Sequence record: MH494197.1
Reading direction: 5' to 3' (one strand)
DNA from: Escherichia phage CMSTMSU
DNA length: 64,000 nt
Made by a program: the position numbers and the translations under genes. The notes below the pieces were generated by a model, which worked only from the letters and a program-made list of their open reading frames with translations, made no database searches and was not told where the DNA came from. Below are positions 4,790 through 13,798 of this stretch, piece after piece; within the stretch, counting starts at the first letter, position 1; every line of letters begins with the position of its first letter.

Positions 4790-4930
4790 CATTCCCTTTT
4801 AATAGATGTATTATAGAAATATTTATGAATCTATAACGAATAAAAAGACCCATCTATAACATTTGTCCAATTTGTCCCATTTTTGGTAATAAATACTACA
4901 GAGACATTTATTACATGGAGATTTAATAAA

Positions 4931-5787
4931 ATGGCAATGAACCCACTAGCTAAGTATACTAAAATTGAAGAACTTGGTACAAAATTGGTCACAAATGGCG
5001 TGATTCCTTATAAAGAAGGAGTTCTTGGCTCTAAAGGTATCAAATGTGGCATTTGTGCTCGTAGTGCACGCGATGAAATGACACTCAATACACCAGATAT
5101 GCTTCTAAATGGTGATGCAATTGCTCGTGTTATTGAAAACTGCGTACCTAACGTACTTGATGCAGATGAACTTTATGTAAATGACGTAGAGCAACTACTT
5201 ATCGCTATTAAAGTAGCTTCTAAAGAAGAATCATATGATATTAATGTGACATGTCCTGAATGTAACAAAGAAGGCCGTTTTGAGCGTAGCTTATCATATC
5301 TACTAGAAACAGCACAAACTTTCAGTGAAGTTCCTACTGTACAATTGGATAATGGACTAAGTTTAGAGTTTAGACCACTTACTTGGAAGGAATATTCTAA
5401 CTTCGCAGAAAGAATGTTTACAGAACAACAAAAACTAAATTCCTTGAAACTGCCGAAATGGAGCAGGAAGAAAAAGTTAAAGTGTTTGGTGAAGTATTTG
5501 AAAGTATGGCACAACTCAACTTTGATATGATCGCAGGAGTTATTGCTAAAGTAATTACTCCTGAAGGTGATGAAGTAACTGAAAACGAATTCATTGCTGA
5601 ATGGCTAGGTCAGCAGTCCAAAGGAACACTTAAAATAATTCGTGAAAAAATGGATGAAGTACTTGAAATTGGTGTTTCCCATACTATGGAAGTTGAATGC
5701 AGTGACTGTAATCATCAATGGGAAATTAATGGACTGAAATATGACCCAAGTCATTTTTCGCATAATGCTTCTCCACTCATCTCCTGA
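4931..5787 (+). CDS. Zinc-ribbon protein with three CxxC pairs (CGIC, CPEC, CSDC); likely virion/baseplate-associated
   Basis: ORFs 4883..5530 and 5458..5787 overlap in different frames (one frame break); GGAG SD upstream of ATG 4931; TAAATA core at 4890..4895. Confidence 0.5.
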
Positions 5788-6028
5788 AGAAATACAAGAA
5801 GTACTGAAGGAATTTGAGTTGAATAAGTCAGATATTAAAACTGCATTAATGGAGTGTTCTGTTTATATGGAAAGTGTTGATTACGGAACACTACTTAATA
5901 TGCCACTAATTGATAGAGACTTATTAGTTAAGTCTTTTAATAAGAAAATTAAAAACAAAACGAGAAGCACTAACTCACAAGGAGCCAGCACATTGTTGCT
6001 GGTTTTTGGTTTTAAACTACAGAATTGA
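5765..6028 (+). CDS. Small hypothetical protein
   Basis: ORF 5741..6028 in track; start choice uncertain, overlaps end of preceding gene. Confidence 0.3.
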   Translation: MLLHSSPEEIQEVLKEFELNKSDIKTALMECSVYMESVDYGTLLNMPLIDRDLLVKSFNKKIKNKTRSTNSQGASTLLLVFGFKLQN

Positions 6029-6217
6029 TTGAATTGAATTATGAAAGGAATTAATTATTTTATAGTGAACTCATCTAACTCATTTCATTCGTTAGCTGAA
6101 GAATATTCGTTACTACGTAACTCATATTCATTTCTTATAATTAATTATAAAGAACTTTAAAAGATTTAATACTTGACGGGATTTGTTGAAGACATTTTCA
6201 TCCCCACAGGGAATGAA

Positions 6218-6245
6218 GACAATAAAAAGAGACAATTAAGTCTCT
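6218..6245 (-). terminator. Rho-independent terminator, minus-strand orientation
   Basis: Minus-strand hairpin AAGAGAC-TTAATT-GTCTCTT followed by TTTATTG. Confidence 0.45.
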
Positions 6246-6682
6246 TAATTCTTGACGCTGATGGTTTCAGCATTTATTGTATTGCGAATTTCTTAAAATT
6301 CATTAAGAACGAAAGCGGGTTGCTCTGTTTCTCTCTATCGCAGTCATGTGCAACGGTCGTCAGTCTTAATCATCCTGACACTCACCTGAAAGTCTATACA
6401 ATCAAACTTCAGGCTGTTTATTAAATCACTTAATAAACTCCCTTAGCAAATCTGGTAAGGTGCGATCCTTATACATCTATCGAGGAACTCTCTGTATGCT
6501 TATCGGAGTTCTTTATTGAGCCGTGTCGCCGTGAGGGGTTCAAACTATGCCCACATCTAACGGGTTTCTTCTGCTCATCGCACTGTTGAACTGCTCATCT
6601 GCCATCTACATTTTCGATAGGATCAGGTTCTAATTTATATGCATTTCTGCATTCAACAGGATTGTCATCACTACAATTAACA

Positions 6683-6716
6683 TTATAGCACCAAATTCAA
6701 AAGTGTCTCACTATTA
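6683..6716 (-). promoter_or_regulatory. Candidate promoter with extended -10 (TGcTATAAT) on minus strand
   Basis: Minus-strand TTTGGTGCTATAAT; same 13-mer recurs at 11363..11376 upstream of the gp55-like gene. Confidence 0.35.
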
Positions 6717-6802
6717 TGATAAAAATTTATAAAAAGTACATAATTCTTGAACATTGAAGTAACGCATAAATATTTTGATAAGAATTAGTTTAGTGGGGAT
6801 TT

Positions 6803-7263
6803 ATGAAGAAAAGATTAAAAGATAGTAAAGAAGCTGCAAACTATCGAAATGAATTACTAAAGAAGCAAAAGGAATTGATCCTATAATTAAGGAACCAATA
6901 ACTAAGCCAGTACTTGATCACTATCACTTCGAGAATCAACACTGTCGTGAAGTTCTCCAGAACGAAGTGAACGCATGGGAAGGTAAAGTACAGAACAGCT
7001 TTAATCGCTATATGAAGCACTTAACCGATAAACCCTTATACGAGGTACTACGAAATCTTGCGGATTATCTGGAGCGTAATAACAGCATTCCTGAAGATGA
7101 GCAAGTTATACATCACACTGCACTAACAATCGATACGAATAAGTTTAAAAGGCTCCCAGCCGGACAACAGAATGCAATACTGGAAGAGTTAGGTGTTATC
7201 CACGTGCAAACAATGCTGCTCGTGTTAAGCAAGCCAGAAAGCTTATCAAGGAAGGTAAATTAA
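6803..7263 (+). CDS. Endonuclease VII-like (HNH-type) protein, atypical: zinc-ligand cysteines not evident
   Basis: VLDHYHFENQHCREVLQNEVNAWEG resembles Endo VII core HLDHDH...RGLLCNLCNAAEG from memory; N-terminus MKKRLKDSKEAANYRNELLKKQK joins ORF 6967..7263 after one frame break. Confidence 0.4.
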
Positions 7264-7277
7264 ATATGGTAGATATA

Positions 7278-7305
7278 AAAAGGGAGCTAAGGCTCCTTTC
7301 CTTTA
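7278..7305. terminator. Bidirectional rho-independent terminator between convergent genes
   Basis: AAAGGGAGC-TAA-GGCTCCTTTCC hairpin with flanking A/T runs. Confidence 0.6.
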
Positions 7306-7306
7306 A

Positions 7307-9423
7307 TTAGAATACATCATCAAGAGTTGTATACTCAACAGTACTGAAACCATCCTCTTTAACTACTTTTAGGATTTTCTCAGTCTTAGAAAGCAATTCT
7401 TCTCTGTGAGAAATGGCATATACATTCTTACCACGCACAGCAGCCATATCTTGGAAGATAGACCACACGCGAAGAACACCACTTGAATCAAGACCTTGGT
7501 CAATCATCTCATCAATGATAAGAATATTGATACTTTGATACAATGACTCATATGTATCACGGAAAGCACAAGATAAAGCAATGTTTACCCTTGTACGCTC
7601 ACCACGACTAAGCTGTTTATAGTCAAAGTACTGACCACTTTTCTCAATTTCTACACTCAAATCATTCAAGAACACAACATTATGTTCAGAACCACACATA
7701 TCAATGTAATATTGAAGACGTGTATTCAGATACGAAATGTTTTGTTCAATAATACGCTTACGGACATAAGAATCCTTGTTTAACAACAATTTAACCAAGA
7801 AATCTTGGTGATTTGCCATCTTATCAAGGTTATTATAGTCACTATAGTCGATTGGTACTAATGAATCGGTCGTAAGTGTATTAATTTGTCCAATAAATGT
7901 GTTAGTAGTTTTCAATTCACGATCTAATTGCTGTGATAATGAAGTTACTGTCATTTCTAACTCTTTTACTTCAGATTTATTCAATGTATCTGGTACTTCT
8001 TGAAGAACATGTGCGTTCAGTTCTTCATATGATGACATAAGTTCATTAGCATAGATGTTAATTTGCTCTTCTTCACTCTTTTAATAAGTTCTTGAAGCTT
8101 ATGCTCATGCATTTGTGCTTCAGTTAGTGTAGAATAGAATGTCACAGGCTTAGGTGGCATATCAAAAATCTCAATACTATCAATTTCCTGAAGTATTGTT
8201 TCAATTTCAGAAGTGGAACTATCAATTTTCGATTGAAGTTCATTAATAGTATTTTGAATTTTATCTTTAATAGACGAAGTATGTTCATTATGTTCTAATT
8301 CGGACATACAAAGTGGACATTTACTACTCTCCACTGTTGCTAATTTGTCCACCTCAGCACGTAACGAACTCTCATGACCATTTAAAGCCACCTTTAATGC
8401 GTTAAGTTTTGTTCTTTGAAACGTTTTTGGTTATTATTCTCTTTTAGAATACCCTCCAACTGTTTCCATATCTCCAACTCATTGTGATTTTCTAATTCAG
8501 TACTGATATCAATAGTTTTTAGCTTATCAATACTTACATTTAATGCTAATTTTGCTGTTGCTAGTTCACGGTCATATGCATCATACTTCAAAGCTAACTC
8601 TTGCACACGTCTTTCTATTTGATCACGAGCAGCATTATGAATAAGAGCTTTCTCTTTCACTTCTGCCAAATCATAGAGATCGTTGAAGTCTAAAGTTTTG
8701 TAGATATTCAATTCTTCAGTCAACTTAGATACTCTATTATTTTTATCAATCTCAAATTGGTTAGCTTGTTCTTGTAATGATTCAATACTTTTTGAATACG
8801 TTCATTACTTGCAGCCACAGTTTCAATTTTGAACTTTTCTTGTTCAGCTAAACGTTTAGAATCTTTATACATATCCTTTAATAGTTCAGCTTTCTCTGTT
8901 AATTGTGTGATGCCCAGAAGTTCCTCAATCATATCACGTTGTTTCTGTGATGATAATGCAAGAAACGGCTCTACGTTAGCATTAAGTACTACAATATGTT
9001 CAAATAGTAGTTGAGAAATCCCAAGAATCTCGTTTAGATCTTCTTGTGTATCTTTCTTCTCCCCTCTTGACTCATCTTCGACCTTATTATCTTTACCTAA
9101 TGTAATAAAGTTGAAATACGTGGACTTCTCCCACGCTCGACGAGATATTGTACACCATCTTTCTCGAACTCAACAGATACTTCACAGTTTTAGCATTAGT
9201 TTTATTAACTAAGTTTGGAATTTTGATATCGTTACCAATACTTTTCCAAACAAACCAAAACTAAACCTTGAATGATGGCACTTTTACCAACACCATTACG
9301 GCGACCGGAACTATCACCACCTTCAATAACTGCATCATTGTTTTGACCAAGAACTAACGATATATCAGCACCAGACAAATCAATTACTTGTGGTGCATTG
9401 CCAAATGAAAAGAAGTTCCTCAT
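7307..9423 (-). CDS. Recombination nuclease ATPase subunit, SbcC/Rad50-like (T4 gp46-like), frame-broken
   Basis: N-terminal Walker A GRRNGVGKS (ORF 9232..9447); coiled-coil middle (8017..8932 fragments); C-terminal ABC signature LSRGERTRV, Walker B LIIDE, H-loop (ORF 7307..8038). Confidence 0.85.
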
Positions 9424-12487: not shown

Positions 12488-13798
12488 ATGGCAGATTTAC
12501 AAAGTTCTGTTGATAATTTTAAAATGATATTTCAAACATCACAAGTTCTGCAAAGGCAGCAAAAGAAACTGCAACAAGTACTATTGAAAGCTTAAAAGCC
12601 ACTGCTAATACTTTGCAAAATGATCTTGAAAAAGTAAAAACAATTTTAAAGCTAAGGTTAGTAACGTACAGTCTTTACCAAAGCAAAGTGCAAGCGTTGA
12701 CCAAGTGTATGAAGACTTGGATCTAAGTGAGTTTGTTATTCCTTATGACAATAAATTGTTAAAGTATGACAATCCAACTTGGCACTTTTCCCGCATTAGA
12801 CAAGGATGATTTCAAAACTTCTGGCTTTACCCAGATGCTGAAGTTCAACGTCATGTCATCTCTGAAAGTGGTGTAACTGGAAAGTATAATATCACAAGTG
12901 TTCAGATGACACAAGCTGGTCCTTCAACTCGGGATGACAACCAACTATTGCTTCAACACAGCAGTACTGAACCTTTCAGAAAACAATAGTATGAGTTTAT
13001 ATGATGAACTAATTTCTTTAAGTAATAAACTAAGGTATCATAAGTTCATGGACTTACCTTTGATATTAGAATTGAAATTTATTGGATTCAATACTAATGG
13101 TGTACCTGAAACTATACCAGAAACAACTCGTAGATGGTCCGTGAAGATTAACAGTGTTACCGCTAGTGCATCACAAAGTGGTAGTACTATGCTGTATTCT
13201 ATGAGTCTTGTTCATAACCGTGCGGCTCTAGTGGATAATGTGGAATGGACTCTTAAAGAACCATTTACCTGCACAGCAGAAAACTTTGGTGATTTTTGTT
13301 TTGATTTGGAAGATAAATTGAATCAAATGGCAGACCAGCAATATGGTTATTTGCGTTATAAATTTGGTGAGTTAGCAGAAGGGAAGTTCTTTGAATTCAA
13401 AGTTGCACCAGATTTACAGGATTTGTTTATAAACTATGATTCTAAACAGATGGCAGAAGCTGGAGCTACAAAAAGTGGTGCACAGGGTTCTAAAACTTTT
13501 CATGGAATCCAAGTACTCCAATTTCTCGAATTATCGATGACGTAATAGATACCTGTACTGTACAGGCTGATGATAGTACTAGTGTTCGTCAATTTGTTAA
13601 TATAATCCCACTTAAACAGTATGTTGGATTTGATAATTACCGAAACACGTCAGTTTATAAAGTTGTTTTCTATATAGTTCGTTTTAAAATTGGTGATATT
13701 GTTCATGAATCCGATTTACAGCCAGAAAACTTTACATTTGAGTATTTCTTTGAAAATGCCGAGAAATATGTAGACCCAAATGACCAAAACCAAAGATT
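12488..13798 (+). CDS. Structural protein (about 436 codons), frame-broken; function unknown
   Basis: ATG 12488 MADLQSSVDNF...; continues through ORF 12934..13545 and to stop near 13798 via frame switches. Confidence 0.4.

Follow-up and report, generated by a model that had tools for sequence, protein, structure and literature searches.

A probable new family of structured RNA in Rak2-like jumbo phages, with a possible replication-origin-like role

Introduction

Several described systems are comparable in part with the element studied here, a conserved structured RNA of about 0.5 kb encoded on the minus strand of Escherichia phage CMSTMSU (sequence record MH494197.1), within a stretch of 64,000 nucleotides that was analysed as a whole and is referred to below as the window. 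RNA II of ColE1 is a sigma70 transcript of about 0.5 kb for which folding matters, and it possesses a G-run/C-run near its 3' end and a defined end, after which DNA synthesis starts. The element is similar in predicted transcript size, in the presence of a G-run hairpin near the 3' end and in its sharp 3' boundary; it differs in having no sequence or Rfam kinship with RNA II, in being multi-copy and in possessing a fold that is far more conserved and is pseudoknotted. The R-loop origins oriF (uvsY) and oriG (34) of phage T4 combine a middle promoter with AT-rich downstream DNA and occur as several origins per genome. The element likewise belongs to phages of the T4 superfamily, has a non-early ('middle'-like) promoter class and AT-rich DNA downstream, and occupies several loci per genome. 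T4 origin transcripts are short, and we know of none that is structured or conserved, whereas the RNA of the element is long, structured and conserved. The put RNA of phage HK022, which is about 70 nt in length and contains two stem-loops, acts in cis on host RNA polymerase, as do the lambda nut sites. Like these, the element is a promoter-proximal RNA followed by a terminator and is found at more than one site per genome, but downstream of the window copy there is no operon on which antitermination could act.

GOLLD and ROOL (RF01998, RF03087) share with the element the 0.5-0.8-kb size class, many helices and pseudoknots, and an association with phages (bioRxiv 10.1101/2024.12.08.627333), whereas the element resides in enterobacterial jumbo phages as four to five dispersed paralogues per genome, has no nearby tRNA genes and matches neither model. 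In the distantly related jumbo phage PA5oct, four putative long non-coding RNAs (lncRNAs), ncRNA001-004, were found by RNA sequencing and are free of open reading frames (ORFs) and 0.24-0.62 kb in length (PMC7318152). These are similar to the element as ORF-free transcribed regions of comparable size in a related jumbo phage but are not homologous to it: nhmmer --max returned no match at E <= 100, and the invariant motifs of the element are essentially absent, with only isolated occurrences of GATAGA and CGTCAG.

A covarying fold on the minus strand

A reading of the window from its sequence alone (the sequence-only reading) had singled out positions 6030-6790 as an interval that might encode a structured non-coding RNA (ncRNA) on the minus strand. 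A conserved promoter, covariation, a strand bias among wobble pairs and the lack of a conserved ORF all bear this out, and the stretch is very probably the gene for a new structured RNA family, which matches no described RNA family. The ncRNA is shown to be about 0.45-0.51 kb in length, to be encoded on the window minus strand and to possess a compact fold of at least 14 helices, four of which are pseudoknot or long-range pairings (Table 1).

The fold was modelled on an alignment of 49 distinct copies of the element, termed A2, which contains 90 invariant columns. RNAalifold predicted 51 pairs from this alignment, 30 of them with compensatory changes, and a covariation scan added long-range pairings to give a combined model of 62 pairs in 14 helices, including the four pseudoknot helices. 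Under the combined model 98.2% of cells are paired, compared with 80.8 +/- 0.4% in shuffles and 37-46% when partners are slid; 42 of the 62 pairs are changed on both sides, and compensatory cells number 498 compared with 128 +/- 12 in shuffles, with none of 500 shuffles matching the observed value. Covariation among related phages, named by the sequence-only reading as a check on its proposal, is therefore well above that of shuffles, and the element exhibits the covariation-supported pairing of a structured RNA, beyond both shuffled and slid controls, on one strand. A further 27 metagenome copies, which are 69-96% identical to any sequence in A2 and were added by sequence alignment alone, served as a held-out set. 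In these, 93.1% of cells are paired; pairing reaches 92-100% in 13 of the 14 helices and is complete (100%) in each of the four pseudoknot helices.

The best-supported long-range set, which spans 6278..6400 and consists of PK2, PK3, P10 and P11, shows two to three Watson-Crick types per pair and is 97.8-100% paired in A2 and 98.5-100% paired in the held-out copies. Pairing of the P8 loop with a distant strand exists in three co-varying versions: UUGUAU:AUACAA, GUCGAAU:AUUCGAC and UUCAUGU:ACAUGAA. Further pairings from the covariation scan are GUUGC with GCAAC inside a 15-nt loop, AUG with CAU, and a 3-bp helix that competes with P1. This last helix (A2 columns 118-120 with 131-133; middle pair U-A in 30, A-U in 11 and C-G in 8 copies) lies at window 6580-6594 and is fully covarying; it brackets the 3' strand of P1 and is mutually exclusive with P1. 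The 90 invariant nucleotides are mostly unpaired, and the P2 hairpins are GNRA-capped.

G-U and U-G pairs occupy 214 cells of the alignment and A-C and C-A pairs only 13, an excess that identifies the window minus strand as the folding strand. In the folding check proposed by the sequence-only reading, folding energy is below that of shuffles on both strands (z = -3.06 sense, -3.19 antisense) and does not tell them apart; the strand was decided from the wobble counts together with the promoter.

Coding potential and base composition

The sequence-only reading had described the interval as the longest without convincing coding potential, and 6422-6852 (431 nt) is indeed the longest interval in the 64-kb window to lack a stop-to-stop frame of at least 60 amino acids, the runner-up being 282 nt. 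Only four ORFs of at least 30 amino acids overlap 6030-6790 (Table 1), and none lies between 6425 and 6802. The TTG-start ORF, already considered doubtful, has no PHROG or Pfam match, and in phage G17, at 92% identity, the same frame is only 45 amino acids long. Across the copies of the element, the longest ORF has a median length of 64 amino acids, and the 83 amino acids of the window copy compare with 57 +/- 17 in shuffles of the same copy. No ORF is conserved across the copies of the element, and none matches a PHROG or Pfam family. A conserved protein gene revealed by frame correction would have spoken against an RNA, but none is annotated in better-quality relatives and none was found to be conserved across copies. 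The GC-rich interval noted from the sequence was also recovered, with a GC content of 0.40-0.47 at 6400-6650 compared with 0.24-0.29 directly on each side. Overall, the element has a GC content of 39.5% and 6030-6164 one of 23%, compared with an average of 37% for the window.

Distribution and copy number

An nhmmer profile of the 49 copies matches the window once, at 6165-6672 on the minus strand (E = 3e-111). A 771-nt region of the locus exhibits 91.9% identity to 121Q-type phages compared with 86.4% for the surrounding 3.3 kb, and 6155-6645 can be aligned at 67-75% DNA identity in phages GAP32, CBB, Serratia BF, Yersinia fHe-Yen9-04 and Xanthomonas XbC2. Matches at 67-75% identity are also present in Erwinia, Klebsiella and Salmonella jumbo phages, and the distant genera include Mimasvirus and Eneladusvirus. 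Each matching phage record holds four to five matching places. In IMG/VR, pattern scans yielded 59 loci, almost all of them on contigs of 350-378 kb; complete genomes contain three to five matches each, always on a single strand. A metagenome scan added 71 loci. In the phage collection searched, the element, a real gene, occupies 'empty' gaps of about 0.7 kb in the annotation of at least 70 jumbo-phage records.

In the complete genome of TH47, which is 98% identical to the window, a profile search found exactly four copies, at 49.4, 146.0, 262.0 and 345.5 kb, and the window copy corresponds to the one at 262.0 kb. There are thus four paralogues in this phage and in Asteriusvirus, and five in related genera. 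Sequence clusters of the copies correspond to genome positions across genera, and all five positional orthologues are kept; the paralogues are therefore ancient, and none of the five has been lost across these genera. Members of the family occur only in Rak2-like jumbo phages and in a few chromosomal islands of enterobacteria.

Promoter, terminator-like hairpin and 3' end

The extended -10 promoter that the sequence-only reading had placed on the minus strand was recovered by a promoter scan (-35-like GTGAGA/GAGACA at 6711/6709, TG, and TATAAT ending at 6682) and is conserved upstream of all aligned copies, every one of which is preceded by the motif 'TGAAAC-17-TGnTATAAT'. From the promoter position, the RNA start site is predicted to lie at about 6675. 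The promoter matches the 'divergent RpoD-like' (second) class, TGAAACG / TATA, reported for phage CBB, which uses this class for DNA-synthesis genes (PMC5259590). In the copy-4 lineage the alignment places the terminator of the upstream gene before the promoter. No conserved promoter for an antisense RNA resembling RNA I was seen in a promoter scan of the element region: plus-strand promoter-like sites, for example at 6252-6280 and 6375-6402, number 5 compared with 4.4 expected in shuffles, and the TTGACG hexamer is CTGACG in most other copies.

A terminator scan likewise found the expected hairpin on the minus strand, as a stem-loop running from 6246 to 6227 and followed by TTTTTATT; the 1.2-kb region contains 3 terminator-like sites compared with 0.3 expected. 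The hairpin stem covaries (GAGAC/GUCUC versus AGUAC/GUACU), and the hairpin is present in three of the five paralogue lineages and missing from the other two. The element therefore forms a unit of sigma70-type promoter and intrinsic terminator on one strand, the latter in those three lineages. Conservation is not limited to the interval between promoter and terminator, as the conserved element extends about 55 nt past the hairpin, to about 6165-6172. This extension contains a C-run/G-run hairpin (P14) and a 3' tail, both of which, unlike the terminator hairpin, are kept in all paralogue lineages. The G-run of P14 is invariant across the family, and its shortening in the window copy by a 3-nt deletion relative to phage fEgEco12 is a probable homopolymer error.

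The heptamer CGUCAAG (CGUCAG in most copies) is present twice in every copy, at 6172-6178 and 6251-6257 in the window, and the segment between the two motifs contains the G-run hairpin and the optional terminator. The pair may mark a protein site or a processing site, or may stem from an old duplication.

Downstream DNA and placement of the copies

Most copies share an AT-rich repeat module 3' of the tail that ends in the promoter for the next gene, of which the window holds a degenerate version. AACGAA is present 48 times in the 160 nt downstream of all copies, compared with 4.3 expected, and the spacing between AACGAA/TGAGTT motifs clusters at 18-21 nt. The GC content downstream of the copies is 30% on average and 23% in the window. 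The promoters that follow most paralogues take the form TTGACA/TTGACT-17-TAnnAT or TGGAAC-17-TATAAT and contain a 5-bp inverted repeat in the spacer, which differs by paralogue yet stays self-complementary (CATTC-GAA-GAATG, CTAAC-GGA-GTTAG, CTTGC-TTCA-GCAAG); this repeat may be a hairpin or an operator.

The copies are close to evenly placed along the genome. Gaps between copies are 62, 80, 84, 78 and 74 kb in CBB and 67, 80, 81, 63 and 75 kb in a 366-kb IMG/VR viral contig, and among the five-copy genomes (CBB, GAP32, Serratia BF and IMG/VR contigs) they are about 50-85 kb, with a coefficient of variation (CV) of 0.10-0.20. The probability of a CV at or below that observed is 2e-4 to 4e-3 per five-copy genome and 0.02 in four-copy TH47. 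All copies lie on the strand to which about 85% of the genes belong. In CBB, four of the five copies occupy unannotated gaps of 660-740 bp between unrelated co-directional hypothetical genes. The window copy and its positional orthologues in all genera face convergent genes, and no co-directional gene follows the window copy; this paralogue is therefore not a leader. No neighbouring gene is conserved, the flanks being different at every paralogue position.

Copies in bacterial chromosomes

Among 5,426 complete E. coli genomes, two carry one chromosomal copy each, and a search of plasmids gave no match. In E. coli LR-29-1 (NZ_AP027515.1) the copy lies in an island of about 10 kb inserted beside ffs (locus L177, 7958-18302), together with a tyrosine integrase split by IS3, a serine recombinase and the candidate defence system PDC-M45 (DuOB, DUF488, mSLOG/DUF4326). 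The copy is intact: it keeps all 90 invariant positions and 60 of the 62 pairs, and it shows six compensatory changes relative to the nearest phage copies, which are those of Serratia BF and Erwinia phages at 80.6% identity. The protein-coding neighbours in the island have no homologues in Rak2-like phages and so are not captured phage genes. A second context is provided by Enterobacteriaceae bacterium RIT714 (WJYB01000004.1; L095, 1-1627), where the copy follows the C-terminus of a tyrosine integrase and an ORF of 50 amino acids. Integrative elements have thus taken up the element on its own, with no phage gene beside it, near tyrosine integrase genes in two different chromosomal contexts. 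For jumbo phages, the LR-29-1 island could act as a satellite or as a phage-inducible island.

The RNA copy in LR-29-1 is followed on its 3' side by another stretch of non-coding DNA, about 700 bp in length (L177, 12550-13258), which contains repeated and inverted ATCGATCGTT / AACGATCGGT motifs at about 12960-13030, which look like iterons or operators. A copy is also present on a 2.8-kb contig of a Clostridium sp. metagenome-assembled genome, probably a mis-binned phage fragment.

Possible functions of the element

Tentatively, the element and its flanking module are read as a cis-acting replication-origin-like unit, composed of the promoter, the structured RNA, the invariant C/G-run hairpin, the sharply ending CGUCAG tail and the AT-rich short-repeat DNA. 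The folded transcript would act as a pre-primer or an R-loop-forming RNA, in the manner of ColE1 RNA II and the T4 middle-promoter origins oriF/oriG, and DNA synthesis would start at about 6165-6172, close to where the conserved tail ends, and would follow transcription, the orientation shared by about 85% of the genes. Evenly spaced copies would cut the genome of about 350 kb into segments of about 55-115 kb, and single-copy chromosomal islands would be amplified by the replisome of an infecting phage. This reading is ranked first because it alone covers the spacing, the retention of the copies, the conservation past the terminator, the AT-rich module, the stand-alone window copy and the capture by islands. 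It is also favoured by the promoter class shared with the DNA-synthesis genes of CBB and by conservation that continues beyond the terminator, through the invariant G-run, to a sharp edge. More speculatively, the copies could be RNA-defined origins that are near-optimally spaced on a giant phage genome, with one unit copied by islands (one with PDC-M45) for phage-driven amplification. If true, these islands would be the first satellites or phage-inducible islands known for Rak2-like phages; an equally novel alternative to RNA-defined origins would be a new large ribozyme or a class of self-assembling RNA.

Several observations weigh against an origin-like role or against the evidence on which it draws. 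To our knowledge, 90 invariant nucleotides and a multi-pseudoknot fold exceed what known primer RNAs need and are typical of ribozymes and ribonucleoprotein (RNP) scaffolds. A search of the literature found no transcript, R-loop or replication data for Rak2-like phages, and GC skew in TH47 tracks gene orientation alone, with no inflection at the copies, and is uninformative for origins. The spacing test was made after the coordinates had been seen, and the five-copy genomes are syntenic and amount to roughly one observation; the spacing in four-copy Asteriusvirus is less even, at 56-116 kb with one gap of 116 kb. Co-orientation of the copies is partly due to general gene orientation, and the AT-rich repeat module doubles as the promoter upstream region in most paralogues. 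The structure model was built from the same alignment on which it was first scored, and P1 is just 58% paired in the held-out copies, and a covarying alternative helix competes with it; the conflict and this failure suggest either alternative conformers or a mis-drawn P1.

It is possible, if rather unlikely, that the element is instead a stand-alone, trans-acting large functional RNA that acts off-locus, as a ribozyme, an RNP scaffold or a self-assembling 'ornate' RNA like ROOL/GOLLD, with the paralogues supplying dosage or specialised variants. Each copy having its own promoter, the intrinsic terminator in three of five lineages, the upstream-gene terminator before the copy-4 promoter and the absence of a co-directional gene after the window copy would all suit such an RNA, as would the compact multi-pseudoknot fold with its mostly unpaired invariant nucleotides, the GNRA-capped P2 and an insert in several paralogues whose self-complementary loop (UUGUACAA or CAAUAUUG) could make kissing contacts. 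However, a trans-acting RNA does not predict the near-even spacing, the conservation past the terminator, the downstream repeat and AT-rich module or the solo capture near island integrases, and neither an Rfam relative nor a partner protein or target was identified. An action in cis on transcription is improbable: the element would be a very large put/nut-like RNA that modifies host RNA polymerase to read past the following terminator and through long co-directional gene arrays, or else a giant regulatory leader. The order of promoter, RNA, terminator-like hairpin and co-directional genes at four of five CBB and three of four TH47 positions fits this, periodic placement on a largely unidirectional genome would suit re-loading stations, and the covarying helix that competes with P1 hints at alternative conformers. 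In addition, Rak2-like phages have no recognised RNA polymerase of their own, and the related PA5oct uses the host enzyme (PMC7318152). Nevertheless, convergent genes and a second terminator lie ahead of the window paralogue and of its orthologues in all genera, an arrangement unlike that of put or nut, most paralogues have a separate promoter for the downstream genes, and the element, at about 500 nt, is far larger than put at about 70 nt.

Less probable still is a DNA-level repeat without an RNA product, which would provide single-stranded DNA hairpins as priming or recombination signals or be the relic of a mobile element. The dispersed multi-copy layout, the occurrence in integrase-bearing islands and the 'repeat_region' annotated in UE-S1 would agree with a repeat, and folded single-stranded DNA also tolerates G-T wobble; set against these, the conserved promoter reads exactly the folding strand, the orthologous positions across genera imply that the element has not been recently mobile, and the helices, pseudoknots and GNRA loops are RNA-like. 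A protein-coding gene masked by assembly frameshifts is highly improbable. The window does contain many homopolymer deletions, and two small hypothetical ORFs are annotated in the gap of fEgEco12, but 121Q, G17 and PBECO4 annotate nothing there, the longest ORFs are not conserved between copies and match no PHROG or Pfam family, the conserved blocks contain many 1-2-nt indels that differ between copies, and the substitutions show compensatory pairing rather than a codon-like pattern.

The combination of four to five ancient paralogues, near-even spacing, a downstream DNA module and island capture is unusual for an RNA gene and points to a role at the level of the genome, and the element relates to the open question of how jumbo-phage replication is initiated. 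The island copies suggest a possible new interaction between phages and islands, of the satellite or defence kind. Few large RNAs are known to have a complex tertiary fold proven by covariation, and RNase P, group I/II introns, OLE, GOLLD and ROOL each opened new biochemistry. The element is also directly testable, as its host phages of E. coli, Klebsiella, Salmonella and Erwinia can be cultivated, and some were isolated as candidate therapeutic or biocontrol agents.

Comparison with known RNA classes

None of the 4,227 covariance models of Rfam 15 reaches its gathering threshold anywhere in the window, and ARAGORN finds no tRNA or tmRNA in its 64 kb; the sequence-only reading had named Rfam and tRNA scans as checks on a candidate ncRNA. 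At E <= 10 over 5500-7300, Rfam gives only chance-level matches and none on the element core, and 11 paralogue loci searched at E <= 1 give none on the element. Weak matches within 5922-6017 (Arrc14 at E = 0.035, STnc30 and the patAB leader) all coincide with the terminator hairpin of the neighbouring gene '595' and reflect a generic hairpin and U-run; Arrc14 and STnc RNAs, whose matches lie on terminators outside the element, were rejected accordingly. A group I intron was likewise rejected, there being no RF00028 match at E <= 10 and the element being intergenic with its own conserved promoter. A suspected likeness of 'ACAGAGCAACCCGCUUUCG' to the 3' region of M1 RNA, the RNase P RNA, was not borne out: local alignment with E. 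coli rnpB reaches a score of 16-19 at best, the level of shuffles (about 18 +/- 2), and the RNase P models of Rfam give no match. Membership of GOLLD or ROOL was rejected in the absence of a covariance-model match and of a tRNA in the window, the likeness being limited to size, complexity and phage association. A full-text literature search found no description of the element.

Features of the element and of the locus

The coordinates of the features are listed in Table 1. Copies differ by many 1-2-nt indels within conserved blocks of the alignment. In other paralogues a module of about 35 nt (UACAAUAUAGAUCCGUCC...; ..UACAAUAUAGAUCCGUCCAAAAUUUG), which the window copy lacks, occupies one or the other of two insertion sites (A2 columns 345-390 and 525-560), and its apical loop, often a perfect palindrome of one of the two sequences given above, is a candidate kissing loop. 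The E. coli island copy appears, by eye, to carry related module sequences at both sites. No paralogue-specific code of kissing partners was found between copies, which have shared palindromic loops only.

Table 1. Positions of the RNA element, its parts and nearby features in the window
Feature	Position	Strand	Basis or remark
Conserved structured RNA element, about 510 nt	6165..6676	-	Helices P1-P14, pseudoknot pairings PK0-PK3; profile, A2, covariation, folding z -3.06
RNA promoter	6682..6711	-	-35-like TGAGAC (6705-6710), 17-nt spacer, TG, -10 TATAAT (6682-6687); promoter scan
P1	6652-6659 with 6583-6589	-	
Invariant block GAUGAG	6594-6599	-	A2
P4 / P5 domain	6517-6577	-	
Invariant block CGGC..GGC	6520-6531	-	A2
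P6	6486-6510	-	
Invariant block GAUAG	6477-6481	-	A2
P7	6456-6471	-	
Invariant block UAAGGGAG	6438-6445	-	A2
P8	6392-6407	-	
PK2	P8 loop 6398-6400 with 6278-6280	-	Extends to UUGUAU:AUACAA; best-supported long-range set
Invariant block CGACCGUUG	6351-6359	-	A2
PK3	GUUGC 6350-6354 with GCAAC 6319-6323	-	Within P11 loop; best-supported long-range set
P10 / P11 / P12	6283-6342	-	
P10 pairing	6338-6342 with 6283-6287	-	Best-supported long-range set
P11 pairing	6331-6335 with 6311-6315	-	Best-supported long-range set
Invariant block AACCCGC	6315-6321	-	A2
Intrinsic-terminator-like hairpin GAGAC-UUAAUU-GUCUC and U-run	6219..6246	-	Terminator scan; optional insert within family
P14 C-run/G-run hairpin	6197..6217	-	Family consensus UUCAUUCCCC-UGCG-GGGGGAUGAA; A2 columns 647-660, C-G to U-G changes only
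Conserved 3' tail CAACAAAUCnCGUCA(A)G	6165..6196	-	CGUCAAG end about 6172; A2 columns 675-690; conservation stops sharply
AT-rich (23% GC) module	6040..6164	.	Direct repeats AACTCAT at 6068, 6077, 6119 and ATTCGTTA at 6087, 6105; degenerate form
Terminator hairpin CCAGCA..TGCTGG and T-run	5967..6012	.	End of convergent upstream gene '595'; low-coordinate limit of unit; G17 and UE-S1 annotate terminator there
TTG-start ORF, 83 amino acids	6173-6424	+	Antisense to RNA; judged not a gene
ORF, 39 amino acids	6041-6160	+	ORF list
ORF, 35 amino acids	6128-6235	-	ORF list
ORF, 35 amino acids	6166-6273	-	ORF list

Positions 4800-8100 of the window exhibit 99% identity with Escherichia phages EC.P1, fEgEco12 and Ecwhy_1 and about 86% identity with 121Q, PBECO4 and G17, all of which are Asteriusvirus (Rak2-like) jumbo phages with genomes of about 350 kb. 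Compared with the 99%-identical fEgEco12, the window assembly shows 14 deletions in 3.3 kb (4841-8078), nearly all of them single bases lost from A/T homopolymers, and these look like assembly errors rather than biology. The deletions split the baseplate hub gene (4883-6028) into three ORFs and the endonuclease VII gene (6803-7263) into two, which accounts for the apparent frameshifts in both genes. Two of the deletions lie inside the RNA element, of 3 nt at about 6207 and of 1 nt at 6223. The gap that contains the element is flanked on one side by gene '595', which encodes 70 amino acids and is itself downstream of the baseplate hub gene, and on the other by endonuclease VII. Among better-quality relatives the gap carries no annotation in 121Q, G17 and PBECO4 and short 'hypothetical protein' calls elsewhere, for example of 40 and 71 amino acids in fEgEco12; other annotation that hints at the element consists of the UE-S1 'repeat_region' and some spurious small ORFs.

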